Shown piece by piece: positions 33,719-53,639 of a stretch of 64,000 nt of DNA; the first letter of the stretch is position 1, and each line of letters begins with the position of its first letter. The notes beneath the pieces are model-generated. The model saw only the letters and a list, made by a program, of their open reading frames with translations. It searched no databases and was not told the origin of the DNA. This DNA is from Candidatus Eiseniibacteriota bacterium (GTDB taxonomy: Bacteria; Eisenbacteria; RBG-16-71-46; CAZAMP01): positions 4,864,001 to 4,928,000 of the forward strand of contig OZ245046.1 of NCBI GenBank assembly GCA_965224245.1. Reading direction: 5' to 3'. The translations under genes and the position numbers were made by a program.

Positions 33719-34001
33719 CGAGGATCCAGTGGGTGAGCTGTCAGTGCGCTCCAGCAGCAAGTTCGCCTCCCGGGCTCGAGGGGGTCGACGGCGGCGTCCT
33801 GCAGGACGCACGTTGTCGCCAGCGCAGATCGCCGGCAGTCGACGGGCCTGGGAGGAAGCGGGGACACCACGTATGCCGATGTGGCGGGCCTCGCGTGCTG
33901 CGGCAGAACTCCCGAGTCCGGCGACTCGAGGGTTTCAACGGATCGAGAGCGAGTTTTTCCATGGAGGTCGCTAGCGGCAACGATGTCGCCGTGTCGAGAG
34001 A

Positions 34002-38167: not shown

Positions 38168-38786
38168 GGTGCGGCCGCCTCCCGATCGTGGAAAGCTCCG
38201 CCGCGAGGTCGATGCCGAGCTTCTCGAGTTCCTGCCTCAGCTTCTGGCGGCATTGGCGAACGACATTGCCCGCGTCGTGATTGCTCAACCCCAGCAGTGC
38301 GGAGAAGTCTCGGTTGTTCCATCCCTCGCCACGGGCTCGCAGGACGAACTGGCAGCGCGGATCGAGCTGGCGGATTGCCTCGGTGGTCAGCTCCAGCAGA
38401 CGCCGCCAGCCCACGCCGGCATCGACGGATGGGTCGGAGGATGCCGTTTGCTCGTAGTCGGCTTCCTCCGGCTCGGGTCGTTGTGCACGCAGCACGTCGA
38501 TGGCGCATCGACGGGCGACCACGAGGAACCACGTCCGGAACCGGTACCCACGAGGCTCGTATGCAAGTAATCGGCGACAGCTCTGGGCGACCATGGAGTC
38601 CAGCACCTCGACCACGAGATCGTGGCGCCGCTCGCCGGCGTTCGCGAACACCGGAAGGCTCGTGCACATGAGCTCCCGGTACGCCTCCTCGAGGAACATG
38701 TGTCGCCCCCGCACAGGATCCTCGCGCAACATCGCGATGCAGTCGGGCAGCGTCTGGTCGAAGCCGCCGGACCCGGTGTCGTCCAC
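38160..38786 (-). CDS. ECF RNA polymerase sigma factor
   Basis: DLVVEVL..RRLLAY..FRTWFLVVARRCAIDVLR; region 4 IRQLDPRCQFVL..CRQKLR. Confidence 0.8.
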   Translation of the reverse strand: MDDTGSGGFDQTLPDCIAMLREDPVRGRHMFLEEAYRELMCTSLPVFANAGERRHDLVVEVLDSMVAQSCRRLLAYEPRGYRFRTWFLVVARRCAIDVLRAQRPEPEEADYEQTASSDPSVDAGVGWRRLLELTTEAIRQLDPRCQFVLRARGEGWNNRDFSALLGLSNHDAGNVVRQCRQKLRQELEKLGIDLAAELSTIGRRPHRA

Positions 38787-38999
38787 GCTCGTCCTTCCGC
38801 TGGATTACGTTCCAATGTCCGAGGGGCGGATCGTAGCACTTTTTTGGAGTGATGGTCACGGAAGACCCCCTGGGCGTCGACGCGATCCCGCCGGCGGTGG
38901 CGTCCGGGCTCTCCGGGTCGAGGGGTCGAGGGCGATGACCCGGCCCGGTGCGGTCCGGAAGAGCGCGTCGCGCCGGCCATCCGGCGCGACGCACCGTCG

Positions 39000-40676
39000 T
39001 TACGGCGTCACCTCCCGCGACATCGTGCTCTCCTGGTCGACGGGGACGGCGTCGGTGACCGGGGCGGCGTCGATTGCCGGCTGGATGCCACCCGCCCGGG
39101 CAATGCTCGCCTCGAGCCTGCGCGCCTCGTCGTCGTCGAGGATGCGCACTTCCGCCACCGGTTCCCCCGATCCTCCCCGCGCCGAGGTCCAGCGCACACA
39201 GACATAGACCGATCGCGCCACTGTCGTGTCGTTGGGGTGCGAGATGGACGCGCTATCGTAGAGCTTCACCTGCGCACAGTACTCGCCGGTCCGGTCGGTG
39301 AAGCAGCTGTAGCTGATCCACGCCCAGAAGTCGAAGGTCGTGCGGTCACTGGCCGGACACGAGTCGTCGAAGATGCTGCCGATGTAGCCCCAGCGATTCA
39401 AGGAACACGGCGTCCGGACGTAGTAGTACGATCCTCCGCTCGGACGAAACCACCACACAGCTTGCGCCTTGCACTGATTCCGATAGCCCCACATGTCGAG
39501 CTTGCCGCGAACGTAGAGGCGCTGGTTCGGATTGTCCGGCTCGGCGCGCACGTTGTAGAAGCGGGCCTTCTTGCGGAAACCGGTGTCGGACGCACTCCGC
39601 GAGCTCTGGTCGCAAGACCATTCCGCGCGCACGCTGTACGAGTAGGTCCGAGACGTGGACGAGCTGCGATCGTCGTAGGACGTCCCGGTCGTCGTGGCCA
39701 GGCGCGAGCCGTCGCGATAGATTGCGTAGCGCGCCGGCCGGGGCGACACCGAGCTCCAGGTGACGCGCACGTACGACGAGTACGTCCCGTTGCTGGCTCG
39801 CACGTTGGTCGGTGTCGGAGGCGAGTACGAGATGTCCGCCGAGCGCACCTGGATCGTCTTCGTCTGGTACCGGTCGACCGTCACGGTCTTGGACCTCGAC
39901 ATCAATCCACAGCCGGGATCTCGAACCGTCCACCGGTGAGTGCCCGGAGTCACCTCGATACGCGGGTTTCCGGACAGCCGCCCGATCGAACGATCGTCGA
40001 CGAACACGTCGTACGTTCCACTTCCGGAGAAGGACAGCTGCGTCGGCGGGCACACCACCCAGTCGATCGAGAGCCCTCCGGCGCCGACCCGCACGGTGTC
40101 GGTCGCCGCCAACCCGATCGTTCGCGTGAAGCTCTGGCTGACGCAACCGTCGTCGTTTCGGAAGCGAAAGCGCTGCTCTCCGACGTCGACGATCTCGCAG
40201 CGGCTCGAGCCCACGGAGATGCTACCGACCCAGTGGCCGTTCAGCTCGAGCTCCAGGTCCTCGGAGAGCCCGCTGAGCGTGAAGCAGAGCCGGGAGTCCG
40301 GACATGACGCCCAGTCGGGCGGCGAGTCCGCGTCGAACTCGACGGTCACCGTCTTCCCCGACTCCGCCACGACCGACTGCGACTTCGATACGCACTGGGT
40401 CCGGGCATTGACGACGTGAACGTCGTGAGGTCCCGGCTCGACGTCGACATCCAAATCCGACTCGTGATCGATGACGCCGACGCGCACCGTATCGACGTAC
40501 ACGCCGAGCGGGTCCGCGTAGTCGCCGAGAGCGAACGACAGCATCGCAGGCTCGGTCGGCGGCGGGGGGTCGGTCACGCCAGTCGTGTCATCCGGCCCGC
40601 AGCCGGCGAGCACCGCCACCGCCAGCGCCGCGCAAGCGAACCACGAGGCGCGCATGCCGAAGTATCGCAGGAACAT
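39000..40676 (-). CDS. Cys-rich multidomain lipoprotein (PEGA-like repeats plus FN3-like domain)
   Basis: Lipobox LAGC; repeats V.PG.H.V; PPTPTNVRAS..VRVTW..YAIYRDG..YSYSVRA. RBS AAAGGAGG. Confidence 0.75.
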   Translation of the reverse strand: MFLRYFGMRASWFACAALAVAVLAGCGPDDTTGVTDPPPPTEPAMLSFALGDYADPLGVYVDTVRVGVIDHESDLDVDVEPGPHDVHVVNARTQCVSKSQSVVAESGKTVTVEFDADSPPDWASCPDSRLCFTLSGLSEDLELELNGHWVGSISVGSSRCEIVDVGEQRFRFRNDDGCVSQSFTRTIGLAATDTVRVGAGGLSIDWVVCPPTQLSFSGSGTYDVFVDDRSIGRLSGNPRIEVTPGTHRWTVRDPGCGLMSRSKTVTVDRYQTKTIQVRSADISYSPPTPTNVRASNGTYSSYVRVTWSSVSPRPARYAIYRDGSRLATTTGTSYDDRSSSTSRTYSYSVRAEWSCDQSSRSASDTGFRKKARFYNVRAEPDNPNQRLYVRGKLDMWGYRNQCKAQAVWWFRPSGGSYYYVRTPCSLNRWGYIGSIFDDSCPASDRTTFDFWAWISYSCFTDRTGEYCAQVKLYDSASISHPNDTTVARSVYVCVRWTSARGGSGEPVAEVRILDDDEARRLEASIARAGGIQPAIDAAPVTDAVPVDQESTMSREVTP

Positions 40677-40710: not shown

Positions 40711-41403
40711 TCACGGCGTCAGGCTCGTACCGATCCGAATCCCCATCCACCAGGCGTCCATGGGCACACCGCGGTGCTCGACCTCGCCCGAGTAGCGCAA
40801 CGTCTGCTCGTGACCGGAGATGGCGACCCGACTCACCTGCAGCTCGAGCACGCCGGGATGCAACCGCCAGCCGCAGGCCAGCGTCGTGAGAAGCCCCGGT
40901 TCGATGGATGACGTTGCGGATGCCACGTCGGGGTGCCCGTCGAAGCGCAGGCGGTTCGACACCCAGCCGATTCCGAGCCCCAGCTCGACGTAGATCGTTC
41001 CGCCCACGGGTCGCGGCATCGTCGACCGGACCACGGCGCCGATCCCGGTCACCGTCCACCGCCCGGTGACCTCGATGTCGTCCACGGTCCCGGCATCCAG
41101 GCCCAATCGCTCGTGGGTCACGAACGGGCCGATCTCGTAGTGCGCCGTGCGATCCAGGGACCACGTCGCACAGGCCTCCAGCGACAGTCCGGTGCTCGCT
41201 CCGGCGCCGGGACGTTCCGAGAAGCTGCCCGTCGGCATCGCGAATCCCACGAGGCCGTCCACGCGCGCTCCTCCGGCGAAGGAGGGCATCGCCACCAGCA
41301 GGCAAGCCAGGGCGGCCAGCGCACATCCTCGCGTGACGCACGTGAGCGTTCGTCGGCCACCCGTCTCACCTCGCCACCCAGCTCGCGATCGGACATTCGA
41401 CAT
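40711..41403 (-). CDS. Putative small outer-membrane beta-barrel protein
   Basis: Signal peptide ending AMPSFA; alternating amphipathic strands (IYVELGLGIGW, WWMGIRIG). RBS GGGAGG. Confidence 0.55.
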   Translation of the reverse strand: MSNVRSRAGWRGETGGRRTLTCVTRGCALAALACLLVAMPSFAGGARVDGLVGFAMPTGSFSERPGAGASTGLSLEACATWSLDRTAHYEIGPFVTHERLGLDAGTVDDIEVTGRWTVTGIGAVVRSTMPRPVGGTIYVELGLGIGWVSNRLRFDGHPDVASATSSIEPGLLTTLACGWRLHPGVLELQVSRVAISGHEQTLRYSGEVEHRGVPMDAWWMGIRIGTSLTP

Positions 41404-41456: not shown

Positions 41457-41489
41457 TTTGAACGGCTGGATCGCCGGCTTTTCGGAACG
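41457..41489 (-). promoter_or_regulatory. Block-specific ECF-type promoter motif, leftward copy
   Basis: Minus strand CGTTCCGAAAAG-N13-CGTT-CAAA, upstream of the OMP/lipoprotein genes. Confidence 0.7.
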
Positions 41490-41497
41490 GGCTTTTC

Positions 41498-41535
41498 GTG
41501 TCCGAAAAGCACGGCCCCGCCACGTTGAGATGATG
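41498..41535 (+). promoter_or_regulatory. Block-specific ECF-type promoter motif, upstream of the tssK-like gene
   Basis: GTGTCCGAAAAG-N13-CGTT-GAGA-TGATG. Confidence 0.7.
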
Positions 41536-41566
41536 CAGACGACGGGACGCACACGGGGGACGCGAC

Positions 41567-42787
41567 ATGCAATCAGAACTGGTACGGAACCCGATCCCGC
41601 ACCTGAGGCTCACGCGTGAGTTCCTGCTCGACCAGATCAGCTACGCCGAGTGGCACGGTCGGGTGGGCTCCCGACCCGGGCTACTGCCACCGGTGGGTGC
41701 CGAGCCGAGCTTGCAGCTCGACATGGAGCCCGCCGACGTCATGTGGCTCCGGAGACTCACGGCCATCGGCGAGCTCGGACAGCCCCTCCTGGTCGGTGAC
41801 GGGGGTCGGGACGTGTCGCCACTGGACACGACCCGTCTCGGCGTGGGGCGGCATCGTGTGTTCGCCGCACTCGAGCGAACCAGGGAGCCGTGTGGTGACG
41901 TCGTGGAGTGTCTGCCGGCCGATGGCGCCCGACGTGCGGTGTCCGGACATGCTCACTTGAAGCCCAGGGTGTCGCTGGTCGTCGGCGACGATCGTTTCCA
42001 GCACCGCGACTGGCTGGAGATCGCACACGTGGAACGAGCACGTGATCGCGGCGCGATGCGAACCTTCCTCGACGGCTCGTTTCACCCGGCGATTCGGGAC
42101 ATGTCGGCGTACACGAAGCCCAACCCGCTGGTGACGCTGGCCCGACTCGGACTGGACGCGTGCGGTGACATCGAGAGCGAGATCGCGAGGGTCGTACTCC
42201 GGTCCGAGCTCGTCGTGCTTCAGAACGTGGCGACCCACGGATGCCCGCAGCTTGCCGTGATCCAAGCACAGCGGTGTCTGGCGTTGCTGAGCGAGCTCGG
42301 CGGCGCTGCGGTTCCGGTACATGCCGGTGCGGAGCGTGTGCGATACGCGCCCGACACCGTGTGTCGATTCCTCTCCACGGTCGCCGGAGATCTCGCCGAT
42401 GGCGGCGATGGCCCGGTCTATCCCGACATCATCCGGGTGGACGAGACGAGCTACCAGCGTCTCGATGGTGAGCTCGAGGAGGACGGTCGCTACTGGACGT
42501 GGCAGGCTCGCCGACCCGGTGGGCTCTGGGCCAACGGCCTGGTGATCTACCTCCCGCGCTCGTCACCCGACGCGCTACCCATCGTGCAGTTCGGTCAGCA
42601 CAAGGCCGAGCCGCACTCGTTCAGGCGGGCCAGAACCTCCCACGCCAACGGTCGACCAGGGGCCACGCTTCGGCTGGATCCGATCACGGAGAGGTTGGGC
42701 GCGATCTACCTCGTGACTGACGCGGCTCAACACGAGCTCGAGCTGCGCGCTCAGCTCGGGGACGGACATGCGATCTACTACTTTTGA
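41567..42787 (+). CDS. tssK: Divergent T6SS subtype-iii baseplate protein TssK-like
   Basis: GLLP...LRRLTAI..LG; R.P.G...P.VSL...LEIA...D.SF.P pattern recalls Bacteroidota TssK; first gene of the operon. Confidence 0.5.
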   Translation: MQSELVRNPIPHLRLTREFLLDQISYAEWHGRVGSRPGLLPPVGAEPSLQLDMEPADVMWLRRLTAIGELGQPLLVGDGGRDVSPLDTTRLGVGRHRVFAALERTREPCGDVVECLPADGARRAVSGHAHLKPRVSLVVGDDRFQHRDWLEIAHVERARDRGAMRTFLDGSFHPAIRDMSAYTKPNPLVTLARLGLDACGDIESEIARVVLRSELVVLQNVATHGCPQLAVIQAQRCLALLSELGGAAVPVHAGAERVRYAPDTVCRFLSTVAGDLADGGDGPVYPDIIRVDETSYQRLDGELEEDGRYWTWQARRPGGLWANGLVIYLPRSSPDALPIVQFGQHKAEPHSFRRARTSHANGRPGATLRLDPITERLGAIYLVTDAAQHELELRAQLGDGHAIYYF

Positions 42788-43736
42788 CGACGCGGCGATG
42801 CCGCGCGGGACACCGCTCGGCATGGTCGACCCCACGCTGGCCGCCGGCACGGCGGAGGGACTTCGCGTGCTCAACGAGCTACTCCTTCGAGTAGCACGGC
42901 CGCGCACGTACACCGCCGAGCGGTCGGCACTCGAGGCCATCAGGGCCATCCGTGATGATCGAGTGAGCATCGCCGCGGACACCGACGCCGCCTTCGACGA
43001 GCTTAGGCGCAACGTCCAGTACGTACGCGCCCAGGATGTCGAGGGACTCGCGGAGTGGCTCCAGCTTTCGAGTCGGTCCCTGGTGCCGAGCACCGAGGCC
43101 CGAAAGCGACGCCATGCACTCCTGATCGCCCTTACGGCGAAGGTCGTCGCCACGACGAGCGGATACGACGTCCCGGCCGCGATCGATGGCTCCGCGCTCT
43201 ATCCATGGAGTGAGGGGCTCGCGCCCCTTCTGACCTGGATGCCCACGAGGCCACTGACGCGTACGTACGGCGAGTTGGCCGGCCGCTATCTCGAGGTCAC
43301 GCAGGAGATCGTGTTCGACGTGCACCTGCATCCCATCGACGCGACGACCCCCGAGGAGTTCGACGGATGGCCGTGGTGGAAGCGCCTCGTCCAGCTGCGC
43401 GGCTGGAGAGCTCGCCACCGGCGCGAGGGGCCCGACAACCCGACCCTGGATGCGGGGCGGCTCGAGTTCCGCCTGGCCAGAAACGGGAGCTTCCGTCGGC
43501 TCGAACGTGACGGGGGCCTCGTCGCCCGCCGTTGGCTCACCACGCTCGGGTACCGCGACGTCGTTCGGCGGACCCGCCCGGGGCTTGCCTGGGTCCTCGG
43601 AGCGTTGGTAGCGGTGATCTCGACGACTGCATTGCTGCTCGTCCTTCACCATCGCATGGACACCATTGCGGGACGCGACCGGGCGCTGGCGGACCACGCA
43701 GCTCGGATCGCCCGCGAGCTGGGGAGTGGACGATGA
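42768..43736 (+). CDS. Hypothetical protein with C-terminal TM helix (candidate membrane-complex component)
   Basis: Coupled to its neighbours; TM LAWVLGALVAVISTTALLLVL. YGEL..Y..HPID..WPWW faintly recalls the TssN cytoplasmic domain. Confidence 0.6.
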   Translation: MRSTTFDDAAMPRGTPLGMVDPTLAAGTAEGLRVLNELLLRVARPRTYTAERSALEAIRAIRDDRVSIAADTDAAFDELRRNVQYVRAQDVEGLAEWLQLSSRSLVPSTEARKRRHALLIALTAKVVATTSGYDVPAAIDGSALYPWSEGLAPLLTWMPTRPLTRTYGELAGRYLEVTQEIVFDVHLHPIDATTPEEFDGWPWWKRLVQLRGWRARHRREGPDNPTLDAGRLEFRLARNGSFRRLERDGGLVARRWLTTLGYRDVVRRTRPGLAWVLGALVAVISTTALLLVLHHRMDTIAGRDRALADHAARIARELGSGR

Positions 43737-45826
43737 CGAGGATGACGGCCACCCGCATCTCGAAACGACTGCGGCGTTTGTCGAGCCTCTTCGGGCGGAC
43801 GAAACGTGTGGTGCTGATCGGACGTGACGTGAGGGACGCTCGAGGAGTCCTCGACGCCTGGCTCAACACCTGTGAAGGCGGGGGGGCGCTGCGGACGGTC
43901 ACACCCCCGACGGGAGATTCCGCGCGCGGAGATCGGGTTGCTCACGAGATCGTCGTGCTCTCGACGGAGCGTCCCGGGCGCTCGTGCCGCTGGGGCGTCG
44001 ATGTCCCCGATCTCGCGACGATCGACCGGGACGAGACCTGGCCCACCCAGGCAAACGCCGCCGTGATCTGCTGGCCCCACGCGGCATTGACCGAGCCGGC
44101 GGAGCGCGTGGCCGAGGCGGTGTTTCGGCTCAGCGGTGCCGTCGGCGAAGGAAGAGCGCGGGGCAAACTCCGGCGTGTCGCGTTCGTGATCACCGGCATT
44201 CCGGCGGACATCGGGCCACGACATCCGTCGCAGGCGCGCCTGGATCTTCCACCGAAGCGACGCCTCGACGACGCCATTCGTGTACAGGCCCGCGAGGGCG
44301 CCGGCGTCCCCGGGCATCCACTCGCGGATGATCGCTGGAGCACCTACCTGCGCTCGAGCGTGGCCGGCAACGCGTCGGTCCGGAAGCTGCATGAGAACGT
44401 GCGCCTGGCATGCGGCGGCGCCTGCCCCATCTTCTTCCTGGCCACCGAGCCCAGCGGCACAGCCGTCACGCGTATTCTGCGATGGCTGAACGGCGACCCG
44501 GAGCCGCGCCGCCAGCGGGTGCGCCCGTTGCTGGCCGCTGGCGTCGCCGCCTCGCTGCTGGCCGCTCTGGTCACATTGATCGTGGTCGTACCGCCCGGTA
44601 CCCAGGCGCGCGTCGCGCCGTCGACGACGTCCGTGGAGAAGATGGCCGGGCTGGCGGACGCGCTGGATGAGCGGCTGTCGGCACACGAGCGATGGTCGGT
44701 GCGCACCGCCGCAATGCTGTCGAGATCGGCCCTCGAGACCGAGCCTCTGCGCGCGGCACGGGATGCCATCCGCGATGCCCGAGCCCGCATCGCCGACGTG
44801 GACGCATTCGTATCCTGGCGGTCGCGCCTGTCTCGGACCCGGGCAGCTCTGGTCGACAGCGTCTCGTCGCGCGGGGTGATCGCGCCCTCCACTTCCGACG
44901 CGGCCCGGGTGGCCGCGGAGTCGGCACTCGACTCGCTCCGGAACTGGTCCGATCGGCCCTGGATCACCCGATGGCGCCACGCCGATCTCACGGAGGCCAG
45001 GCAGCAGGCAGGCGAGATCGCGGTGTGGTGGGCGTTGACGTCGCTGGACGTCGACCTCCGCCCCAGTGGGAGGCTCGTGGCCGATCTCGGGCGGCAAGCA
45101 GCGATCTCGTCCGAGCTGACGCGACTCTCGTTCACCGAGGAGGCGCAGTGGATTCACCTCCGGCTCGACACCCCGCTTCACTTTCTCGCGGACTACGCCA
45201 TCCGTCTGCGTGACGACATCAACCCCTACGCGGGCGTCTTCCGCCGCTTCGTGCCGTTCCTGTCCGAGCCGGACGTCCGGTCGGAGGTCGCGGCCCTGAG
45301 GGAGCTTTCGGTGGCGGAGGTCCTCGCCGCGCGAGACCTGCTCCGAGAGCGCGTTGACGAGCTCGTGACGCTGGTCGAGATGTGGGAACGCGTATCCAAC
45401 ACCTCCCGTGCCGACCTGAAGTCGGACCTGAGCACGCTCGCCACCGGACTCGATGAGATCGACGACGCGGTGTACATGGAGATCGCGCTGAACGTGGCAG
45501 GCGATACGCACTGGCACGTCGACTACGCAACATCTTCGAGTGGCCCCTGGCGCGCATCCACTCTGGACGGCGACGGTGGTGCCACGATCGTGGCGGCGAC
45601 TGCCCGGCCTGACGCAACGCTCTACCTCCGGTTCAACTGGCGGTCTCGGACCCACGCCGTCGAAAGCCGCCGGGCAGGCAGCGCATGCACGGGTGGATCG
45701 AGGATTGAGCTCCCGCTCTGGCAAGGTCACGGCGTGATCCAGACGCGCACGAGGAACGTGCACTGGAACGTGCGGGACGGCCGTCCGACGTGGCCGCCCT
45801 CGAAAGTGGATGGAGGTGCGGAATGA
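43733..45826 (+). CDS. Large bitopic membrane protein: degenerate P-loop-like N-domain, one TM, helical plus beta extracytoplasmic region (TssM-like topology)
   Basis: ATGA overlap; KRVVLIG, DVPD, AVICW and RVAFVITG strands without GKS/T; TM LLAAGVAASLLAALVTLIVVV. Confidence 0.6.
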   Translation: MTRMTATRISKRLRRLSSLFGRTKRVVLIGRDVRDARGVLDAWLNTCEGGGALRTVTPPTGDSARGDRVAHEIVVLSTERPGRSCRWGVDVPDLATIDRDETWPTQANAAVICWPHAALTEPAERVAEAVFRLSGAVGEGRARGKLRRVAFVITGIPADIGPRHPSQARLDLPPKRRLDDAIRVQAREGAGVPGHPLADDRWSTYLRSSVAGNASVRKLHENVRLACGGACPIFFLATEPSGTAVTRILRWLNGDPEPRRQRVRPLLAAGVAASLLAALVTLIVVVPPGTQARVAPSTTSVEKMAGLADALDERLSAHERWSVRTAAMLSRSALETEPLRAARDAIRDARARIADVDAFVSWRSRLSRTRAALVDSVSSRGVIAPSTSDAARVAAESALDSLRNWSDRPWITRWRHADLTEARQQAGEIAVWWALTSLDVDLRPSGRLVADLGRQAAISSELTRLSFTEEAQWIHLRLDTPLHFLADYAIRLRDDINPYAGVFRRFVPFLSEPDVRSEVAALRELSVAEVLAARDLLRERVDELVTLVEMWERVSNTSRADLKSDLSTLATGLDEIDDAVYMEIALNVAGDTHWHVDYATSSSGPWRASTLDGDGGATIVAATARPDATLYLRFNWRSRTHAVESRRAGSACTGGSRIELPLWQGHGVIQTRTRNVHWNVRDGRPTWPPSKVDGGAE

Positions 45827-46404
45827 CGCGGACCGCTTCTGGGCTGGGTGCGACGCTAATCCTCCTGACGACGCTCGTCGGTACGGGCGAAGGGGTCGAC
45901 GCGGCGGGCGCGTTCCTCGAGGCCGAGTGTCGGGTCGTCACCGGCGGTGACTCGACCGAGGTCGTCCTCGAGGTCGTGAACGTGCGCAACCTGGCGACCG
46001 GTCCATCGGACTGGACCGCGTCGCTCTCGATCGACTGTTCCGTGGAGGAGTCGCGCCTTCCCTGGCGAACCGAGCTGGGGAGCGGCTGGCGTGCGGTCGC
46101 GGCCTGGACGGTCACCAGTCCGAGCCGAGGCTTCCTCTTTCTCGGGGGCCGGGGCGGACGCGCCACGCTCACGCTGCCATCGGCCGGCTGGTCGATCCGG
46201 TGCCACTGCGCGGGCAAGAGCGACGAACCCCGCGTTCGAGTGTTCGGCGTCCTGATCGGGCCGGACGGCGAACCGGTCCCGTCTCTGAGCTACGTCGGCG
46301 AGCAGGAGTCGTTCTTCGCGCGTCTCCTTCCCTTCGGGTCCGGGCACCCCGCCGAGCTGCCGTCGTCGGTTCGGCTGCGCCTGGCCTGGGAGCCGTTCGA
46401 GTGA
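45823..46404 (+). CDS. Hypothetical exported beta-rich protein
   Basis: ATGA overlap, RBS GGAGG, N-terminal hydrophobic signal. Confidence 0.6.
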   Translation: MTRTASGLGATLILLTTLVGTGEGVDAAGAFLEAECRVVTGGDSTEVVLEVVNVRNLATGPSDWTASLSIDCSVEESRLPWRTELGSGWRAVAAWTVTSPSRGFLFLGGRGGRATLTLPSAGWSIRCHCAGKSDEPRVRVFGVLIGPDGEPVPSLSYVGEQESFFARLLPFGSGHPAELPSSVRLRLAWEPFE

Positions 46405-46489
46405 TCGGCGCGCTCCGTCGGTTGACCGCAAGATGCGTGTCCACATTGCAACGCCGACCCGACACACATCTCGAGGAAGATCCAATCCC

Positions 46490-46527
46490 ATCTCCGAAAT
46501 CGCCGCTCGAGGCCCGTTCATCTGGTG
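46490..46527 (+). promoter_or_regulatory. Block-specific ECF-type promoter motif, upstream of tssB
   Basis: ATCTCCGAAATC-N13-CGTT-CATC-TGGTG. Confidence 0.65.
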
Positions 46528-46562
46528 AGACCACGAGCCTTCGCATGATGAGGAGGATCCCC

Positions 46563-47087
46563 ATGGCGGACGACAAAGGTCTGAAAGCGCACATCGTGTA
46601 CCCCGATCCCGAGAAGGCGCTCTCGGCCCCGGTGTTGCCGGAGGTCGCGATCGCCTTCGACGCTTCTCTTCAGCCCAGGCGCCGATCACTCGCGGCGCTC
46701 AAGGCTGCTCACCCGACCGACCTCACGGCCAACAGCGTCGACGAGGTCTGCTCCGGGCTCGGTCTGGTGATCCGGGGCACGGTCGAAGATGAGACGGGCG
46801 CGAAGAAACAGGTCGTCATCCCGGTCGCGAACGAAAACACGTTCACGCCGGGCGGGCTGACCGCCCGCTGCGAGCCTCTCTTCGACCTGTACACCGCGCA
46901 TCGAACGGCCGATCAAATCGCGACGCTGTCGGAGGAAGTCGAGCTCGACCAGGCGCTCTCAGCGATCGAGACGCTGGATGCATTCGAGCGAGCACTCGCC
47001 GCCGTGGACGCGCCGAGTAACGATGACGTCCCTGACCCGGCGAGCGACGACGAGACCTCGCCCAACGAGCAACCCGGAGGAATGTGA
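46563..47087 (+). CDS. tssB: Contractile sheath small subunit, T6SS subtype-iii TssB-like
   Basis: SVDEV...EDETG...N..FTP..LT...L..L recalls Bacteroidota TssB. RBS GAGGAGG; precedes the sheath large subunit. Confidence 0.7.
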   Translation: MADDKGLKAHIVYPDPEKALSAPVLPEVAIAFDASLQPRRRSLAALKAAHPTDLTANSVDEVCSGLGLVIRGTVEDETGAKKQVVIPVANENTFTPGGLTARCEPLFDLYTAHRTADQIATLSEEVELDQALSAIETLDAFERALAAVDAPSNDDVPDPASDDETSPNEQPGGM

Positions 47088-48442
47088 TGATGAGCGCAGT
47101 GGCCACACGCCTCGACCACGAGATGCTGGAGCGTCTGCGTGGGATTCATGCCGTCATGCCCGGGCTCCAGCCCGATCCAGTCACCGGAGGCGACCTCGAG
47201 TGTCCCGGCATCGACGTCACCGAGAGCGACATCGACCTCCGGGACCTGCTCAACCGTCGCGGAGAAGCGGCACGGCAAAGCAGGCGTCTCCTGCGGGCAC
47301 ACATCCGGGCGTTCATCGCGATCACGCGTCGCGCCGAGGCGAACGGCCAGACCCTGAAACAAGCCGCGTCCGAGCACGCGGACGCATCGGCCCAGGCGCT
47401 GGAACGATCCTGGGTATCGCTCCTCACTGCGAACCGCGAGCTGGAGACCCGGGTGCGAAGCGTGGCGTTGATGTTTGCCAACCTCGCATCATCCCGGGCC
47501 GCGCTCACCGATCGCATCCACTTTCTGGACGTCAGCCACGAGGAGCTGAACACGCCCGCCGGCCAGGACTTCGTCCGCGACTACCTGAGCCACTTCGTGG
47601 ATCGCCCGGATCCCCGGGAGGCCCGCGGATACTTCTGGGCTCCCGGCTGGCTAGGAGATGCCGATGGCGTCAACGCGCTCGGTCGAGTCGTGCACGAGCA
47701 TCGTGCGCTCTTCGTGTCGGACGCGCCGCCGTACGAGTCGGAGGTCGCGCTGAAGAAGGCCGCCAGGCCCGGACGTCTCCTGGACTCGCTGAAGGGAGAG
47801 GACGTTCACCATCGGCACATGATCCTGATCGGCAACCCGACCCGTGCCCGCGGCGCGTTTCGCGGACGCACGGCATCAGAGGCCGACGACGTTCGGGTTC
47901 CGGGCAGCTCGGCCTGGTTCGGCATGCAGCTCGACACGATCGTGCGCGGTACGCCGTGGATTCCGGTCGCCGGCTACCTGAACCCGCTGGCCGGCGTGGA
48001 CGACGTCGCGGTCGATCTCCGGCTGGAAGACGTGGCCGGGTTCCGTCTGTATGCGAGCCATCGCATCAATCCCGTCATCCTGAGGGGCGCCGGCTCGAAC
48101 ATCGCGGTCGTCTGGGGCGCCTACACCCTCGGCGGGCAGCAGGTCGGCGAGGCGGTGGCCGAGCTCGAGGTGGTCCGTTTTGCGGAGTGGGTCATGAACC
48201 AGCACGGACTCCTGGTCGAGCTCGACAAGGGCGCCAGGGAGGTTCGCCGCCAGCTCGCCCACTTCGTCACGTTGAACCGCGGCGCGGGAAAGATGTTCAG
48301 AGCGAAGAGCCGAGTCGACGTGCGGGTCGAGGGAAAGACGATCGTCGTCGACTTCGATCTCCACTACCGAGTGGTCACCGAACACGCGGTCATTCGGATG
48401 AACAAGTCGTCAGACGAGACCGCGCTCGAAATCACGGACTGA
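47087..48442 (+). CDS. tssC: Contractile sheath large subunit, T6SS subtype-iii TssC (DUF5458)-like
   Basis: RELE..RSVAL.F.N, DR.D....G....PGWLG, HE.....V.D, L.G.DV, DD..VP, AG....L..VD.V..DL, VVR; about 450 aa. Confidence 0.8.
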   Translation: MMSAVATRLDHEMLERLRGIHAVMPGLQPDPVTGGDLECPGIDVTESDIDLRDLLNRRGEAARQSRRLLRAHIRAFIAITRRAEANGQTLKQAASEHADASAQALERSWVSLLTANRELETRVRSVALMFANLASSRAALTDRIHFLDVSHEELNTPAGQDFVRDYLSHFVDRPDPREARGYFWAPGWLGDADGVNALGRVVHEHRALFVSDAPPYESEVALKKAARPGRLLDSLKGEDVHHRHMILIGNPTRARGAFRGRTASEADDVRVPGSSAWFGMQLDTIVRGTPWIPVAGYLNPLAGVDDVAVDLRLEDVAGFRLYASHRINPVILRGAGSNIAVVWGAYTLGGQQVGEAVAELEVVRFAEWVMNQHGLLVELDKGAREVRRQLAHFVTLNRGAGKMFRAKSRVDVRVEGKTIVVDFDLHYRVVTEHAVIRMNKSSDETALEITD

Positions 48443-48461
48443 TCGTCGACGGGAGGATGAC

Positions 48462-48896
48462 GTGCCTAACTACAGGATCCGCGCAGAGCTGAAGCCGCGA
48501 AGTGGCGAAGCGATCGAGCTCGACCACATCCTGAGCCTATCGTGGAGGGCCTGGCGTAGCCCGGGCCCCAACAACAACCTCGGGCAGGTGGGGCACCAGG
48601 TCGACGAGATCGTGCTGACCCGGCACAAGTCGCTGCCCAATGGCGAGCAGCCGGCGGAGGACAGGACGGTCGCGGCTGCCGCGGCACGCGAGCAAGACGC
48701 CTTCCACTCCGGCGAGATCACGGTGGCACGCCCGGAGGATCCGACGAACCCGGTACAGACGATCCGCTTCGACGAGGGTCACGTGACGTCGATCCAGCAA
48801 GAGATCAACGGCAGCCGGTTCGTGGAGACGCTCAACATCGCCGTGAAGTCACTCCAGGTCGACGACAACATCTTCGAGCCGGAACCGGCGGAGTGA
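48462..48896 (+). CDS. tssD: Tube protein, TssD/Hcp-like
   Basis: 144 aa beta protein between sheath and spike genes; GEITV.R...QTIRFDEG...ETLNI pattern. Confidence 0.7.
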   Translation: MPNYRIRAELKPRSGEAIELDHILSLSWRAWRSPGPNNNLGQVGHQVDEIVLTRHKSLPNGEQPAEDRTVAAAAAREQDAFHSGEITVARPEDPTNPVQTIRFDEGHVTSIQQEINGSRFVETLNIAVKSLQVDDNIFEPEPAE

Positions 48897-50362
48897 GTGT
48901 CACCGGTGCAGTGGCCCCCGGCGCGGACTGTCGGTTTCGGGTACTCGTGGACGACGATCGGCTCGACGGCATCGGCGACGTGACCATCGTCGAGGATCTC
49001 CGGGGCGGGGTGGATGCCAGGTTCGATCTGTGGCTCGACCCGGCGACTCGCATCCGGCCTGGCCAGCGCGTGACGGTTCGGGTGGAGCGGGTGGGCAGGA
49101 TCAACCACGACACCGAGATCCACACGTGGTGCCGTACCACGTCGACCTTTCGGGTCTCGGGCGAGCGGGCAACGTGCCGTACGCACGCCACCGATCCCCT
49201 CCGCGTGCATCCGCCGCAGCCGGAGTTCCGGAGTCATGCCGGCGGTGTCGGGTTGCTGCAGCTCGCGCGCGCGGTGGCGCGTCTGCCGAAAGGCGTGCGC
49301 GCGTCCGCCCAAGACGTACCGGTGCGCGCGGCCTGGCTTCTGCAAGCCGACGAATCCGCGGTCGAGTTCATGCACCGGGTAGCGGCCGCGATCGACCACG
49401 TCGTGTTCTGGAGTCGAGACGAGCTGACCGCGGCGATGATCGGTGACGACCGCGAGGACCACGAGCTCGGCGACTTCGGCGAGGACGACGTTCTGCGAGC
49501 GACCTACGTGGAGTCGGTGGGCCTGCATGGGACCAACACGACGTGGATCCATCCGGAGACGCGATCGGTGCAGCAACGTCGTCAGGACCCGCACCGCTCG
49601 GGCGGTACGATCGCAACGCGTCGAAGCGCGTGGCGCGCCGGCGGCGCGGTCATGCCGGCACCGGCCGATGGTCTGTGGATGGCGACGACATTGTCGACAC
49701 ATCGGCCGGACGTCCGCCTCGGGTCGCGGCTCGAGATGGAGAACGGTCCCTGGATTGTCCACCGCGTCGAGCATCACCTCACGGCTCGCGGCACCTACGA
49801 GAACGTGATCCACGCCGTGCGCGCGGTGGACTGGGGACGTCCCGCGTACGCGCTGACGCCGTTGGTGATCGGCCCGCTGCACGCGACGGTGGTCGACAAC
49901 GAGGATCCGGCTGCTCTGGGACGGATCCGTGTCGTCCTGCTCGAGGATCCTGACCGGCGTCCGACACCGTGGGTGCCTTACGGATTTGCCTACGCGGGTC
50001 CAGCACATGGGATTCACTACGTTCCCGAGAAGGGCGACCTGGTCCTCGTGGATGCCGAGCCCGGCTCGCCCGAGCGTCTCTACGCTCGAGGCAGCATCCG
50101 AAGCGCTCGGTCGCCGGTGCCCGACGATTGGCAGGTCCGTGGTAACGCGATCAAGACCTGGGTGACCCGGGGCGGCAGCGGTGTCGTCATCGACGACGGG
50201 AGCCGCACCCTCCGGGCGACCGCGGGCGCCATGCTGAGTGTGAACGCCGACGACCTGGTCGCCGAAGCGACGACTCTCCGACTCCACGCTGCCGGGAGTC
50301 TGGCGCTCGACGGTGACGAGCACGTCGCGATTCGGTCTCGCCGTCGCATCGATCTGGGGTGA
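48893..50362 (+). CDS. vgrG: VgrG/TssI spike protein (gp27-like hub, gp5 OB-fold, short beta-helix)
   Basis: Q.DES..EF..R; ATVVDNEDP..LGRIRV; TPW; YAG..HG...VPE.GD.VLV; N.IKT..TRGG..V.IDD; terminal IDL. Confidence 0.85.
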   Translation: MSVTGAVAPGADCRFRVLVDDDRLDGIGDVTIVEDLRGGVDARFDLWLDPATRIRPGQRVTVRVERVGRINHDTEIHTWCRTTSTFRVSGERATCRTHATDPLRVHPPQPEFRSHAGGVGLLQLARAVARLPKGVRASAQDVPVRAAWLLQADESAVEFMHRVAAAIDHVVFWSRDELTAAMIGDDREDHELGDFGEDDVLRATYVESVGLHGTNTTWIHPETRSVQQRRQDPHRSGGTIATRRSAWRAGGAVMPAPADGLWMATTLSTHRPDVRLGSRLEMENGPWIVHRVEHHLTARGTYENVIHAVRAVDWGRPAYALTPLVIGPLHATVVDNEDPAALGRIRVVLLEDPDRRPTPWVPYGFAYAGPAHGIHYVPEKGDLVLVDAEPGSPERLYARGSIRSARSPVPDDWQVRGNAIKTWVTRGGSGVVIDDGSRTLRATAGAMLSVNADDLVAEATTLRLHAAGSLALDGDEHVAIRSRRRIDLG

Positions 50363-51936
50363 ACATGTTCGAGCTGGAGGCATTGACTCGCACCATGCTG
50401 GATGCGATCGACGATGTCGGCGCCGCCCTCGTGGAACGGACGCGCACCGCGTGCGCGAACGCGCTGCTGGCGGTGTCGGATCCAGGGCTTGCACTACCGT
50501 CTCCACCGGTCGCGCTGATGGAGTTCGACACGGACGAGACGGCAACCCTCGACCGACGGGCCTTGCTGCGGTCAGAGCTGGCACTCAAGGCGTCAGGCGA
50601 GATCCTGGTGACTCCGGTGTGCGGGGACATCGTGGTTCATCCGTGGCGCATCGAGAGCGCCGAGTGGATCATGGACGACCCACGCGACACCGGTGAGGAC
50701 GATCCCAGGGTGGCGAGGGGCGTCGTGTGTCGGCTTCGGAGATCCCCGGCGTCGACTTGCACGCCGGGTCCCCTGACCGTGCACGTGGGAGTGGACCCGG
50801 CGGTGGTTGGAAGCCTCAGACGGAGCATCGCGACGGCGCGCGCGATCGACGACTCGGACACCCAGCGACTGCTCGTCGTGGACCGAAAGCCGGAGACGTA
50901 TCTTGCCACACGGGTCCCCGTCGGTCCCACGACGACCGATCAGCAGGTCGCGGCACAGGAGGAGACGCTCGTCAGCGTGTATGTGACGCGCGAACTCTGC
51001 GAGCGCGAGTCATGGACGCTCGAGCTCCGCTTCGCGCGGCGAGCACTGGCCGTGTCGTCGACGCCGTCCGTGACGGCAAACGTGCACTCGGTCTGGAACT
51101 CCCTGTGGACGCGGTATCCAGAGCGCGCGTCGGTGCAGCAGACCGTGTCCGAGAACCGGAATCGCTGGGTACATGCGCTCGGGTCCCGAGACGTGGGATC
51201 GAGCTGGCGTGCGTGGAGCGTCGTTCGCGTCGGGACCTCACGGCGCCTCCATTCCGCCACGTCCTGGTTCGCGTCGACGGGCCGTTCGCCGGCGACCGAC
51301 ACACCGGCGCTCCTGCTGGCGTACGTCGGTGAACAGACGTCGCATCCCGAGCGACAAGTGCGCGCGACGTCTCCTACCCCCGTTCTGTCGATCGTGGTCG
51401 ACGCGACCACGCGGCGACACCTGGACGATGCCCGCACGAAACTGACGGCGGAGTACTGGATCACGACGGGTGCCGACGGCAATGGCGTTCCGGCTGGCAC
51501 CGCATTTCACGTCGACTCACCCCTGTCGGCTCGTCTTCAGGGACGGCTCGTCACGTCGATGTGGGGTGGCACCGACGGCGCGATGGGCCATGTGGTCGAC
51601 TTCTCGGGAGACGAGCAGCCATCGGTGTTCGTGGCTCCACGTGGCTTGCTCACGGTGACTGACGCGATGAACATCATCGCGCGTGCCTCGGGAGGGATGC
51701 TGGACGTGGTCGATCCGCGGGACTTCCTTCGCTGGGGGGCAGCGTCGCCGATCGAGCCGCTCGTCGTGCGCGTGCGGTTCCGCGACCGCGTCCCCGGCCA
51801 TCAGGGCGGAATCGTGCTGGCAGCGTGTCGCGGCGCACTCGAGCAGCGGATGGGCAGCGCGGTCGCGGCCGGACTCGTGCTCACTTGCGACGAGATGCGA
51901 GATGGGGTCGCAATGGATGTTTCCGATGACGCGTAG
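50359..51936 (+). CDS. tssF: Divergent baseplate wedge protein TssF-like
   Basis: FELE.L...P..ALM, TP, YW.T.G..GNG..AG, GG.D, LLT..D motifs; position after vgrG with GTGA overlap. Confidence 0.55.
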   Translation: MNMFELEALTRTMLDAIDDVGAALVERTRTACANALLAVSDPGLALPSPPVALMEFDTDETATLDRRALLRSELALKASGEILVTPVCGDIVVHPWRIESAEWIMDDPRDTGEDDPRVARGVVCRLRRSPASTCTPGPLTVHVGVDPAVVGSLRRSIATARAIDDSDTQRLLVVDRKPETYLATRVPVGPTTTDQQVAAQEETLVSVYVTRELCERESWTLELRFARRALAVSSTPSVTANVHSVWNSLWTRYPERASVQQTVSENRNRWVHALGSRDVGSSWRAWSVVRVGTSRRLHSATSWFASTGRSPATDTPALLLAYVGEQTSHPERQVRATSPTPVLSIVVDATTRRHLDDARTKLTAEYWITTGADGNGVPAGTAFHVDSPLSARLQGRLVTSMWGGTDGAMGHVVDFSGDEQPSVFVAPRGLLTVTDAMNIIARASGGMLDVVDPRDFLRWGAASPIEPLVVRVRFRDRVPGHQGGIVLAACRGALEQRMGSAVAAGLVLTCDEMRDGVAMDVSDDA

Positions 51937-52468
51937 CATGCTGCACGATGCCGACACCCCTCGTCGAGAGCTGGGCATCGACGTCGGTCGACAGATCACG
52001 GAACGGATCGGGGAGCGCCTCGGCGCCGACGAAGGAGCCCGTGACGACGTCCCGGGGCGGGTGTCGAAGCAGCTCGGTGACGCGCTCGCGCTCCTCGCCT
52101 CGCCTCCGGTTCGACAGCGTCTCGACGAGCTGGAAACGCTGCTGGCCGTCGTGCTCACGACACCGTGGCACGTCGCCGCGATCGAGATCGCCAAGCCTCT
52201 GCCGCACGTGATCACCCGCTTCACGCGATCGGCGCACCGCGGAGCGCGCATCTCGGTGGGGAGAGGACGGCGCGCGAGCCGAATCGGAGAATGTCGGGTC
52301 GCCGAAACGCCGATCACCGTGCACCTGCCACAGGTGAGTGAGGTCGGGCCGGATCAGCCGCGGGACTGGGTGCTCCGGGCGCCAGTCGGCACGGTCGTGC
52401 GGCCAGCCGAGGAGGCGCCGTTGGATGTCCGGGTCGGCGTCAGTTGCATCGAGGAGGATGCATCATGA
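51917..52468 (+). CDS. Short hypothetical protein, possibly a reduced TssG-like wedge subunit
   Basis: Follows tssF and is coupled to the PAAR gene (ATGA); LE.LL..VL..P motif. Start uncertain (51917, 51926 or 51938). Confidence 0.45.
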   Translation: MFPMTRSMLHDADTPRRELGIDVGRQITERIGERLGADEGARDDVPGRVSKQLGDALALLASPPVRQRLDELETLLAVVLTTPWHVAAIEIAKPLPHVITRFTRSAHRGARISVGRGRRASRIGECRVAETPITVHLPQVSEVGPDQPRDWVLRAPVGTVVRPAEEAPLDVRVGVSCIEEDAS

Positions 52469-52791
52469 GAGGTATCGCCCGCCGGGGCGATCGCATCGAA
52501 GGGGGTGTTCACTGCCACGGTGGCCACTCGCACCCTCCGCCGGCGAGCCCGGGCCGGATCGTCGGGGGCGCGCGCAAGGTGTTCGTCAACGGTCGCCCGG
52601 CGGCTCGCGCCGGAGACAGTGGGTACTCGCCGCTCTGCTGCGCCGGCATCGGCCGCATCTCGATCCGAGAGGACCAGATGCTCGTGTGGATCGAGGGAAA
52701 GCCGGCGGCTGGCGTCGGAACACCCACCATGCACTGCGACGTCGCCCCGGGACGCATTGCCACCGGAAGCACCGAGGTCCGCATGCCGTAG
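52465..52791 (+). CDS. PAAR-repeat spike tip protein
   Basis: IARRGD, VFVNGRPAARAGD, IEGKPAAGVG, GRIATGS.EV; His/Cys metal ligands. Confidence 0.92.
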   Translation: MRGIARRGDRIEGGVHCHGGHSHPPPASPGRIVGGARKVFVNGRPAARAGDSGYSPLCCAGIGRISIREDQMLVWIEGKPAAGVGTPTMHCDVAPGRIATGSTEVRMP

Positions 52792-52810
52792 CGCGGCGTC
52801 CGGCTACACG

Positions 52811-52848
52811 GTGTCCGAAAAGGGCACCTCCCGCGCGTTCACTTGATG
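52811..52848 (+). promoter_or_regulatory. Block-specific ECF-type promoter motif, upstream of the terminal lipoprotein
   Basis: GTGTCCGAAAAG-N13-CGTT-CACT-TGATG; first 12 nt identical to the 41498 copy. Confidence 0.7.
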
Positions 52849-52871: not shown

Positions 52872-53639
52872 ATGACGACGCGAACGGGCGCGACCCGCTG
52901 GCCGGGCCGCCTCGGTGCACTGCTCGTACTGGTATGTGGGATACAGGCTTGCGAGAAGCCGACGGAGTCCGAGCCGGACGATCGACGTGAGTTCTCGATC
53001 CGCGCGACGCTGGGCGCCGACACGCCCGTGCGGGGCGCAACGGTGCGAATCCCGCTCGGGACTCGCTCGCTCAGTGAGCGAACCGGTGACGACGGACGCT
53101 GCACGTTCTATTTCGAAAGGGATGAGGATCTTCCACCGCGCCTCGTCGCCACGATCGAGCACGCGTCGATCATGCCCGATGCGGTCGCGTTCGACACGTC
53201 CGGCGACGGGGACGCCCTCCGTCGCACGTGCGTTCGACGACCGTCGACGACGTACGTCGAGGACGTGACGCTTCACCACCTCGGGAACGATCGGTACGGT
53301 GGCGACCCCAACTCGCAGCTCCAGATTCCGTCTCAGGGGATCTCGCAGACGTACCGCTTCCACCTCGACACGTATCCGTCACGGATGCCGACGATCCGGC
53401 TCTATGCGCGAGGCATCCAGCATCCGACACGGATTCAGCTCAACGGACAGACGGTGTCGCGGCTCGGGGACAGCGACCCGTCGGGCGGGCTGAGCAGGTA
53501 CAACTTCCGGCTCGGGGGCGCTCCGCGTTCGGTGCTCCGTCCCGGCATGAACACGCTGACCGTTCACACCGCCCCGTACAACGAGAGCGATCCGTGGGAC
53601 GACATCGAGTTCTGCGCGCTGATGCTGTACTTCGAGTAG
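52872..53639 (+). CDS. Lipoprotein with prealbumin-like and jelly-roll-like domains
   Basis: Lipobox IQAC; PVRGATV..TGDDG; LHHLGND.Y.G..NS.LQ; WDDIEF. RBS GGAGG. Confidence 0.75.
   Translation: MTTRTGATRWPGRLGALLVLVCGIQACEKPTESEPDDRREFSIRATLGADTPVRGATVRIPLGTRSLSERTGDDGRCTFYFERDEDLPPRLVATIEHASIMPDAVAFDTSGDGDALRRTCVRRPSTTYVEDVTLHHLGNDRYGGDPNSQLQIPSQGISQTYRFHLDTYPSRMPTIRLYARGIQHPTRIQLNGQTVSRLGDSDPSGGLSRYNFRLGGAPRSVLRPGMNTLTVHTAPYNESDPWDDIEFCALMLYFE

Follow-up and report, generated by a model that had tools for sequence, protein, structure and literature searches.

A bipartite TCCGAAA-N15-CGTT motif as the probable promoter of an extracytoplasmic function sigma family at a type VI secretion-like gene cluster

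How might a contractile injection machine be placed under the control of a signalling module encoded beside it? We considered a stretch of 64,000 nucleotides from a Candidatus Eiseniibacteriota bacterium (assembly GCA_965224245.1, contig OZ245046.1, positions 4,864,001 to 4,928,000; hereafter the window), in which a gene cluster resembling a type VI secretion system (T6SS) lies next to two genes for extracytoplasmic function (ECF) sigma factors of one family (ECF-A and ECF-B), a putative anti-sigma factor and a caspase-like protease. Four copies of the motif TCCGAAA-N15-CGTT punctuate this block. Site D (41461-41486, minus strand) heads a leftward arm consisting of an outer membrane protein (OMP)-like gene and a lipoprotein gene; site A (41501-41526, plus strand) precedes the tssK-like gene; site B (46493-46518, plus strand) lies inside the cluster, before the tssB-position gene, tssC and hcp; and site C (52814-52839, plus strand) precedes the last lipoprotein gene of the cluster. 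All four are intergenic, on the sense strand and within 11.4 kb, and the end of the putative -10 element is 40, 44 and 32 nt from the next start codon at sites A, B and C, and 57 nt from the ATG at 41403 at site D. An earlier note on this DNA had described these four copies with their places, flanks and 15-nt spacing, their position just before start codons, and a 10-bp inverted repeat spanning 41477-41510, and each of these was found as claimed. The repeat (41477-41486 and 41501-41510), read directly in the sequence, is merely the two back-to-back -35 elements of sites D and A. Divergent back-to-back pairs of sites also occur in two homologous loci of other genomes (L026 and L056).

The rightward cluster, all on the plus strand, begins with a TssK-like gene (41567-42787), whose product has TssK (5m30, E 4.8e-6) as its top Foldseek match, with TssK again at ranks 8 and 10; the model used as query had a pLDDT of 51 and a TM of 0.18. 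It is followed by a TssL-position protein (42768-43736; C-terminal transmembrane helix at residues 275-293, no family match), a TssM-position protein (43733-45826; transmembrane helix at 268-286, a possible GTPase-like N-terminus and a helical C-terminal part) and a protein without a match in the family libraries searched (45823-46404). For the TssM-position protein the Atlas offers no more than a lead (0.79 to clusters in which 18-27% of members carry DO-GTPase families), and its model (pLDDT 37) is too poor for a structure search. Behind site B lie a TssB-position gene (46563-47087; no Pfam match, and not similar to its positional counterpart in L006, a T6SS-like cluster described below), a TssC sheath subunit (47087-48442; PF17541, E 4.3e-11, over the cut-off), an Hcp/TssD-like tube subunit (48462-48896; PF17642, E 0.0078, below the cut-off), a short VgrG-like spike (48893-50362; PF04717, E 6.9e-13; TIGR01646, E 1.1e-8), a TssF/baseplate-J-like protein (50359-51936; Atlas 0.92 to a cluster in which 23% of members carry PF05947), a tssG-position protein (51902-52468, start uncertain within 51902-51938; no family match) and a PAAR protein (52465-52791; PF05488, E 1.3e-16). 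Site C then gives the closing lipoprotein gene (52872-53639) its own putative promoter. The components clearly recognised by family matches are the sheath TssC, the spike VgrG and PAAR; PF17541 and PF17642 are Bacteroidota-type models. The leftward arm encodes an exported protein (40711-41403, minus strand), OMP-like by look only, with an N-terminal hydrophobic stretch and no Pfam or NCBIfam match, and a lipoprotein (39000-40676, minus strand), whose N-terminal hydrophobic stretch ends in LAGC and whose Pfam matches are all sub-threshold. Among the gene names in the earlier note, tssK (by a fold search with a low-confidence model) and tssC, vgrG and PAAR (by family matches) were upheld, whereas "tssB" and "OMP" are names by position or by the look of the sequence.

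The exact motif occurs in the 6.94-Mb assembly at these four sites, upstream of genes, and nowhere else. At spacers of 11-20 nt, TCCGAAA and CGTT give 0-4 scattered matches each, so that a total of four is unremarkable; the signal lies in the clustering of the four sites and not in the genome-wide count. With up to one mismatch, the window holds 6 matches against 0.64 expected, a number reached in 0 of 100 shuffles. We further compared gene-anchored 13-kb blocks of contig C1, which carries the studied block, under a null that allows post-hoc choice of the word (any 7+4, 6+5, 5+6 or 4+7 word with a gap of 12-20 in at least four upstream regions; gene anchors from a simple purpose-made gene caller). 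Only one of the 2,959 blocks contained such a four-fold upstream word, namely TCCGAAA-N15-CGTT in the studied block. This comparison supersedes a fixed-step null (0 of 897 blocks with four copies) that had cut through the studied block. A matrix built from 29 sites in foreign genomes ranked sites B, D, C and A as 1, 2, 3 and 9 genome-wide; in the same genome-wide scan, spacers 14/15 were no more frequent than others, and no regulon beyond the studied block emerged. Scans for sigma-70 promoters and for terminators stayed at chance level. We rejected the reading of CCGAA as a -10 element of SigK-like type, because the DNA upstream of it shows no conservation, whereas the CGTT on its downstream side is invariant.

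What, then, reads these sites? Both ECF genes encode only sigma2 and sigma4 domains in about 200 aa, and both match one family model: built from the top 60 relatives of ECF-A, it scores the two window proteins at 192 and 135 bits and the other ECFs of the genome at 51 or less. A representative library contained 231 relatives of ECF-A at E<=0.001, none of them close, and the family profile matched solved ECF structures at a best E of 5e-11. The family is carried by 13 of 206 genomes in the phylum to which the window belongs, by 10 of 208 in a second phylum and by 22 of 251 in a sampled class; records with the same family include Ignavibacteria, Eisenbacteria and Krumholzibacteriia. We kept 49 distinct homologous loci, leaving out the duplicates L027, L029, L049 and L052; a further duplicate, L037, is left out of the locus counts yet stands among the held-out loci (without a site), and L041, which carries no ECF gene, is left out of the spacer spectra. 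In the first 21 loci (336 kb), on which the W position and the N14 spacer were learnt, TCCGAAW-Nk-CGTT matched 15 times with k=14 and 14 times with k=15, against 4 matches at 14 other spacers together. In 29 held-out loci (466 kb), fetched after the pattern had been fixed, the corresponding numbers were 15, 17 and 11. The consensus is accordingly refined to TCCGAAW-N14/15-CGTT, and the conservation in homologous loci that the earlier note had named as a check was found in the held-out set. For background, the 206 genomes of the phylum contain 344 N15 matches in total. Among the N14/15 matches of single genomes, the fraction at the ECF locus was 3 of 3 in G034, 4 of 6 in G114, 4 of 8 in G047 and 0 of 5 in G005. 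An exact site within 260 nt past the ECF stop lies on the same strand in 14 of the 49 loci and on the opposite strand in none, and the genes behind sites at other loci (start calls heuristic) are mostly putative anti-sigma, ECF, and exported protein or lipoprotein genes.

We thus find a bipartite -35/-10 arrangement with a fixed 14/15-nt spacer, a CGT-type -10 element, sense orientation and co-occurrence with an ECF gene, all features of an ECF promoter. What the computation shows is a consistently oriented motif associated with this ECF family, together with a correlation between site type and recognition helix (below); that the motif is the promoter of the family, a little-studied one whose genes usually lie with those for a caspase-like protease and a membrane-bound inhibitor, is very probable from the sequences. 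The ECF-promoter reading of the earlier note therefore gained support, in that a motif tied to particular spacers is enriched where ECF genes of this family lie, points to downstream genes and is kept before two homologous genes in a second genome (G114, below). We give a probability of roughly 0.7 to the reading that the sites are promoters with TCCGAAW as -35 and CGTT as -10 element, that they serve an ECF family whose genes as a rule lie beside those for a single-pass anti-sigma and a TPR-CHAT protein, and that they define a local regulon. This regulon would comprise the T6SS-like cluster, with promoters at its head, before the sheath and tube genes and before the last lipoprotein gene, together with the divergent leftward arm of exported proteins; the internal site B would supply the most abundant subunits, those of the sheath and the tube.

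Elsewhere in the family, genes for FeeM-like N-acyl amino acid synthases lie directly behind the motif at L025:8734-9657, L026:3034-3855 and L056:15150-16766, which suggests a lipid or signal-molecule output. On one contig (L026 and L041, G209:C398), six N15 sites fall within 21 kb, mostly before small exported proteins.

The link to T6SS genes recurs only in part, in a second genome. G114, a genome of another family and 98% complete, has a homologue of the TssK-like protein (37% identical) with an N14 site 44 nt before it, and a homologue of the last lipoprotein (E 3.4e-59) with an N14 site 77 nt before it, though the latter gene has moved within the locus; it also has a homologue of the TssL-position protein. 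The G114 contig ends after the second gene. A metagenome scan with the TssK pair gave 265 pattern matches, of which 0 were confirmed.

The two sigma factors differ in the helix that would contact the -35 element. ECF-A (38160-38786, minus strand; TIGR02937 over the cut-off) overlaps the start of the anti-sigma gene; ECF-B (33023-33760, minus strand; TIGR02937 below the cut-off) is an intact open reading frame (ORF), for which a TTG start was chosen for its GGAGG site, and aligns to positions 10-204 of the 217 in the family model. The predicted recognition helix, which we place by analogy to sigma-E, reads K-K-V-S-D-D-L-R-Y-C-R in most family members, with Gly for Ser in a minority. ECF-A belongs to a Gly-Asn subtype (G-N-V-V-R-Q), and ECF-B (V-L-D-S-L-R-Y) keeps the D, L, R and Y. 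Exact TCC sites were present in 29 of 42 non-Gly loci and in 0 of 7 Gly loci (Fisher p 0.0009, a value inflated by kin that are not independent); the split was first noticed on three Gly loci and held in four later ones. Among GAAW cores flanking the ECF gene, 21 of 31 start with TCC in non-Gly loci and 0 of 6 in Gly loci, and 28 of 31 against 0 of 6 start with T. Gly loci keep a GAAW-N14/15-CGT core beside the ECF gene with the triplets CAG, GCC, CGA, CCG, AAC and GCA, and no single consensus for Gly-type sigmas was found among them. Scored against the helices of 28 TCC-associated ECFs (L063 being left out, as its one site is 7 kb away), ECF-B reached 20.9 and ECF-A -0.6. In a tree of 65 sequences (FastTree, midpoint root, supports 0.8-0.9), ECF-A falls in the Gly-Asn clade and ECF-B on the other side. 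Because the helix of ECF-B matches the sigmas of TCC loci and the Gly-type helix of ECF-A belongs to loci without TCC sites, ECF-B is the likelier reader: judged from sequence, ECF-B alone probably reads the four sites, a reading shared with ECF-A seems unlikely and one by ECF-A alone unlikelier still. In the cascade reading described below, one helix position, Ser versus Gly, would set the promoter class that a family member reads.

Of 130 family members, 117 retain both of two sigma4 cysteines (C145 and C179 in ECF-A); both are absent in 5, only the first in 7 and only the second in 1. They are a possible disulfide or packing pair. Word-index protein searches with ECF-A, ECF-B and the TssK-like protein each matched the query itself only. 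A possible extended -10 housekeeping promoter (TG-C-TACGAT, 38815-38845, minus strand), seen by eye and not reported by the sigma-70 scan, lies about 30-40 nt before ECF-A. The window also holds a third, ordinary ECF sigma outside the studied family (17188-17778, minus strand).

Between the two sigma genes lie the putative anti-sigma (37229-38167, minus strand) and the TPR-CHAT caspase-like protease (34002-37208, minus strand). The former has an N-terminus resembling an anti-sigma domain, one transmembrane helix at residues 145-163 and a conserved Arg-Gly after it, the Arg being nearly invariant in an alignment of 22 homologues. We call it a putative anti-sigma because of its gene position, the single transmembrane helix, and weak zf-HC2 matches in 4 of the 22 homologues (best E 0.0045, below the cut-off). 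No conserved His or Cys that could serve as a zinc ligand was present in the 22 aligned N-termini, and the profile matched nothing among solved structures below E 0.065. In the protease (Pfam CHAT, E 5e-58; TPR), both motifs of the His-Cys dyad are present, at residues 895 and 972; its N-terminus looks signal-peptide-like by eye, and the hydropathy scan did not flag it. A CHAT homologue occurs at 34 of the 49 loci, and of the 13 CHAT-domain proteins in the genome only this one stands beside an ECF of the studied family. By analogy with DdvA of Myxococcus xanthus, it is somewhat probable that cleavage of the anti-sigma by the CHAT protease, followed by intramembrane proteolysis, turns the module on; release of a sigma by such a cut also has a parallel in Csx29/Csx30, described below. 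The protease would cut outside the cytoplasm, perhaps near the nearly invariant Arg after the transmembrane helix, and intramembrane proteolysis would then free a sigma. Because the regulons hold exported proteins, our guess at the trigger is damage to, or contact at, the envelope. We infer a functional link between this module and the injection machine, the arrangement suggesting a protease-gated switch. A complex prediction for ECF-B with the anti-sigma N-terminus scored 0.01 and was not used either way.

A fifth, variant site absent from the earlier note, ATG-GAAA-N15-CGTT (33937-33962, minus strand), lies between the stop of the protease gene and ECF-B, 176 nt before the likely ECF-B start. 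It is probably real, because such cores are rare upstream of genes in this genome: other GAAW-N14/15-CGTT cores number 12 in the 583 kb of sense-upstream DNA of C1, or about 0.5% per 240 nt. The site could be readable by ECF-A, giving a cascade, or by ECF-B, giving autoregulation. In a cascade, the CHAT protease would cut the anti-sigma near the conserved Arg-Gly; the freed ECF-A would transcribe ECF-B from the variant promoter; and ECF-B, with its different -35 helix, would fire the four TCC promoters, one of which (site D) may read through a 214-nt gap and restock ECF-A, the anti-sigma and the protease. We put forward the step from a first-freed ECF-A to ECF-B only tentatively, and the whole, in which an extracytoplasmic caspase-like protease gates a two-step sigma cascade (ECF-A to ECF-B to the TCC promoters) that arms an atypical contractile injection machine, is unlikely to hold in every part. 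Autoregulation of ECF-B from the fifth site, with both sigmas acting in parallel and no cascade, is a somewhat doubtful alternative. In several homologous loci sites do lie upstream of the ECF gene itself (6 TCC cores), and non-Gly loci use non-TCC cores too, for example AGT and GCC; the fifth site, however, starts with A and in this resembles the Gly-type cores, 0 of 6 of which start with T, while 28 of the 31 non-Gly flanking cores do. A 244-aa gene behind ECF-B (32191-32925, minus strand), with a strong ribosome-binding site and no family match, is possibly co-transcribed with it.

Several observations weigh against the reading of the sites as family promoters that serve a T6SS-like machine. 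First, 13 of the 42 non-Gly loci lack an exact site, 10 of the 31 flanking cores in non-Gly loci are not TCC, and the genes downstream of sites at other loci are mostly not T6SS genes. Second, the TssK-like gene was found in only two genomes of the phylum (2 of 206) and in none of the two other groups (0 of 208 and 0 of 251); searches of G114 with the window queries did not find TssC, VgrG or the TssM-position protein, and its 8.5-kb contig carries no CHAT gene. The full T6SS output is thus seen in one genome only. Third, the cluster yielded no recognisable TssA, TssE, TssJ or ClpV; the genome's only gp25/TssE match lies in another cluster, and none of the four Clp-motif proteins on C1 is in the studied block. 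Fourth, ECF-B is the longest branch of the tree, has a GC content at third codon positions (GC3) of 0.71, under the 1st percentile of the genome, and lacks the two cysteines described above; from these traits it may be decaying.

The third group bears on what the promoters drive. Real promoters may here drive something other than a working T6SS, be it a contractile system that is partial or a relic, or an envelope complex put to new use; we regard this as a minority possibility. Besides the unrecognised components, the tssB and tssG genes are named by position only, and a second, canonical-looking and seemingly complete T6SS lies at C1:1548600-1576500 (L064; a gp25 match, with ClpV-like, sheath, tube and VgrG genes by sequence look). 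Against it, the block ORFs are all open, with mostly overlapping or tight junctions and ribosome-binding sites, TssC, VgrG, PAAR, TssK-like and TssF-like genes are present, and the three cluster promoters are kept exactly. No exact motif copy is found in the second cluster. Two further T6SS-like clusters of the same class, L005 (G033:C95) and L006 (G050:C134), have a TssC homologue and, by sequence look, two hcp-position genes, and L006 additionally a Clp-like gene and a small gene in a baseplate position. Compared by pairwise BLAST with proteins of L005 and L006, the tssB-, tssF- and tssG-position products gave no significant match, and the 20 kb fetched for these clusters held no N14/15 TCC site. 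Block genes have a GC3 of 0.71-0.87 against a genome median of 0.89, as would be expected for acquired DNA. Of five sequencing data sets listed, four contain the stretch, all of them from a single study, and none of these is an RNA data set. Secreted proteins with C-terminal FlgD-Ig domains flank the block (30623-32062, plus strand; 29031-30317, minus strand), one of them with three CHRD repeats.

The fourth group would suit a reading of the same promoters in which ECF-A is the working sigma with relaxed upstream specificity and ECF-B a decaying copy, the TCC triplets being left over from an ancestral regulator. In its favour, the ECF-A gene runs into the start of the anti-sigma gene, the arrangement usual in this family, and Gly-type loci show a variety of triplets before the GAAW-N14/15-CGTT core, which would allow ECF-A to tolerate TCC. 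TCC is, however, exact in all four window sites and present in none of the seven Gly-type loci, and ECF-B is intact, keeps the helix residues D, L, R and Y and has its own upstream core site; we consider this reading improbable. It is very improbable that a dimeric transcription factor uses the motif as its operator, with the inverted repeat at its centre: the perfect 10-bp repeat does exist, but sites B and C are single and oriented, and the halves in homologous loci keep the 14/15-nt spacer and point to downstream genes (14 versus 0).

How does this arrangement compare with known systems? Set against T6SS subtype i and the Bacteroidota subtype iii, the window shares TssC, Hcp-like, VgrG, PAAR, TssK-like and TssF-like genes, and differs in the four components not recognised and in very divergent TssL- and TssM-position proteins. 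Our literature search found neither the TCCGAAW-CGTT motif described nor any secretion system placed under a CHAT-gated sigma, and no paper that joins T6SS subtype iii with Eisenbacteria. The consulted part of an ECF-classification supplement (Casas-Pastor; PMC7826278) contains 0 occurrences of CCGAA, and the family may still correspond to one of the numbered groups. The same source, in the portion drawn on, describes ECF54 as an actinobacterial group with TPR-CHAT neighbours, no putative anti-sigma and a predicted GTATCAG/CTCC promoter (PMC7826278). The window ECF genes likewise adjoin a TPR-CHAT gene; membership in ECF54 was rejected because the window family has another promoter and a putative anti-sigma.

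The closest parallel in organisation is DdvS/DdvA of M. xanthus, with an ECF sigma, a single-pass anti-sigma and a TPR-CHAT part with a His-Cys dyad, whose trigger and proposed self-cleavage are unproven according to the sections consulted (PMC11506125). As in the window, four promoters lie within one island (PMC11506125, PMC6061681), and the AA-n16-CGT geometry is shared: mapped DdvS promoters read GTAA-n16-CGT (PMC6061681), and the window sites CGAA-n15/16-CGT. However, CHAT is fused to the anti-sigma in DdvA, whereas the window has separate ORFs (37229-38167 and 34002-37208), separate in homologues too; DdvA has a zinc-binding anti-sigma domain, in contrast to the window N-terminus; and DdvS has another -35 element and a CBASS/CRISPR output, in contrast to T6SS-like and exported-protein genes and two sigmas here. 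DdvA-type membership was rejected on the separate protease and the lack of zinc ligands, despite the CHAT dyad. In type III-E CRISPR systems, a separate TPR-CHAT protein, Csx29, cuts the anti-sigma Csx30 and frees CASP-sigma (PMC10028731). This resembles the window in its separate TPR-CHAT and in an ECF with few sites in its own locus, and differs in being cytoplasmic and RNA-triggered with a TCACA...CGAC motif, while the studied block has no Cas genes and no Cas7-11 locus. Two of the three CASP-sigma locus sites hold TCCGAAAA inside the spacer, which we take as a coincidence (PMC10028731 supplementary tables S2-S3). Membership was rejected on the differing motif and on PADLOC, which matched 0 of 10 block proteins.

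ECF control of a T6SS is itself already known: in Xanthomonas citri, the ECF43 sigma EcfK is activated by phosphorylation, with PknS, and induces T6SS genes (PMC13147305). The window shares an ECF sigma that would control T6SS genes and differs in that no kinase gene was recognised in the block, which has an anti-sigma and a protease instead. If the proposed control is true, sigma control gated by CHAT proteins, seen so far in anti-phage islands, would reach a T6SS-like machine as well. The locus would also offer a ready-made readout for the class of split ECF/anti-sigma/TPR-CHAT switches, since its protease, inhibitor, sigmas and promoters are small and separately encoded and could be reassembled in reporters, and a natural pair of sigma variants for a -35 recognition rule.

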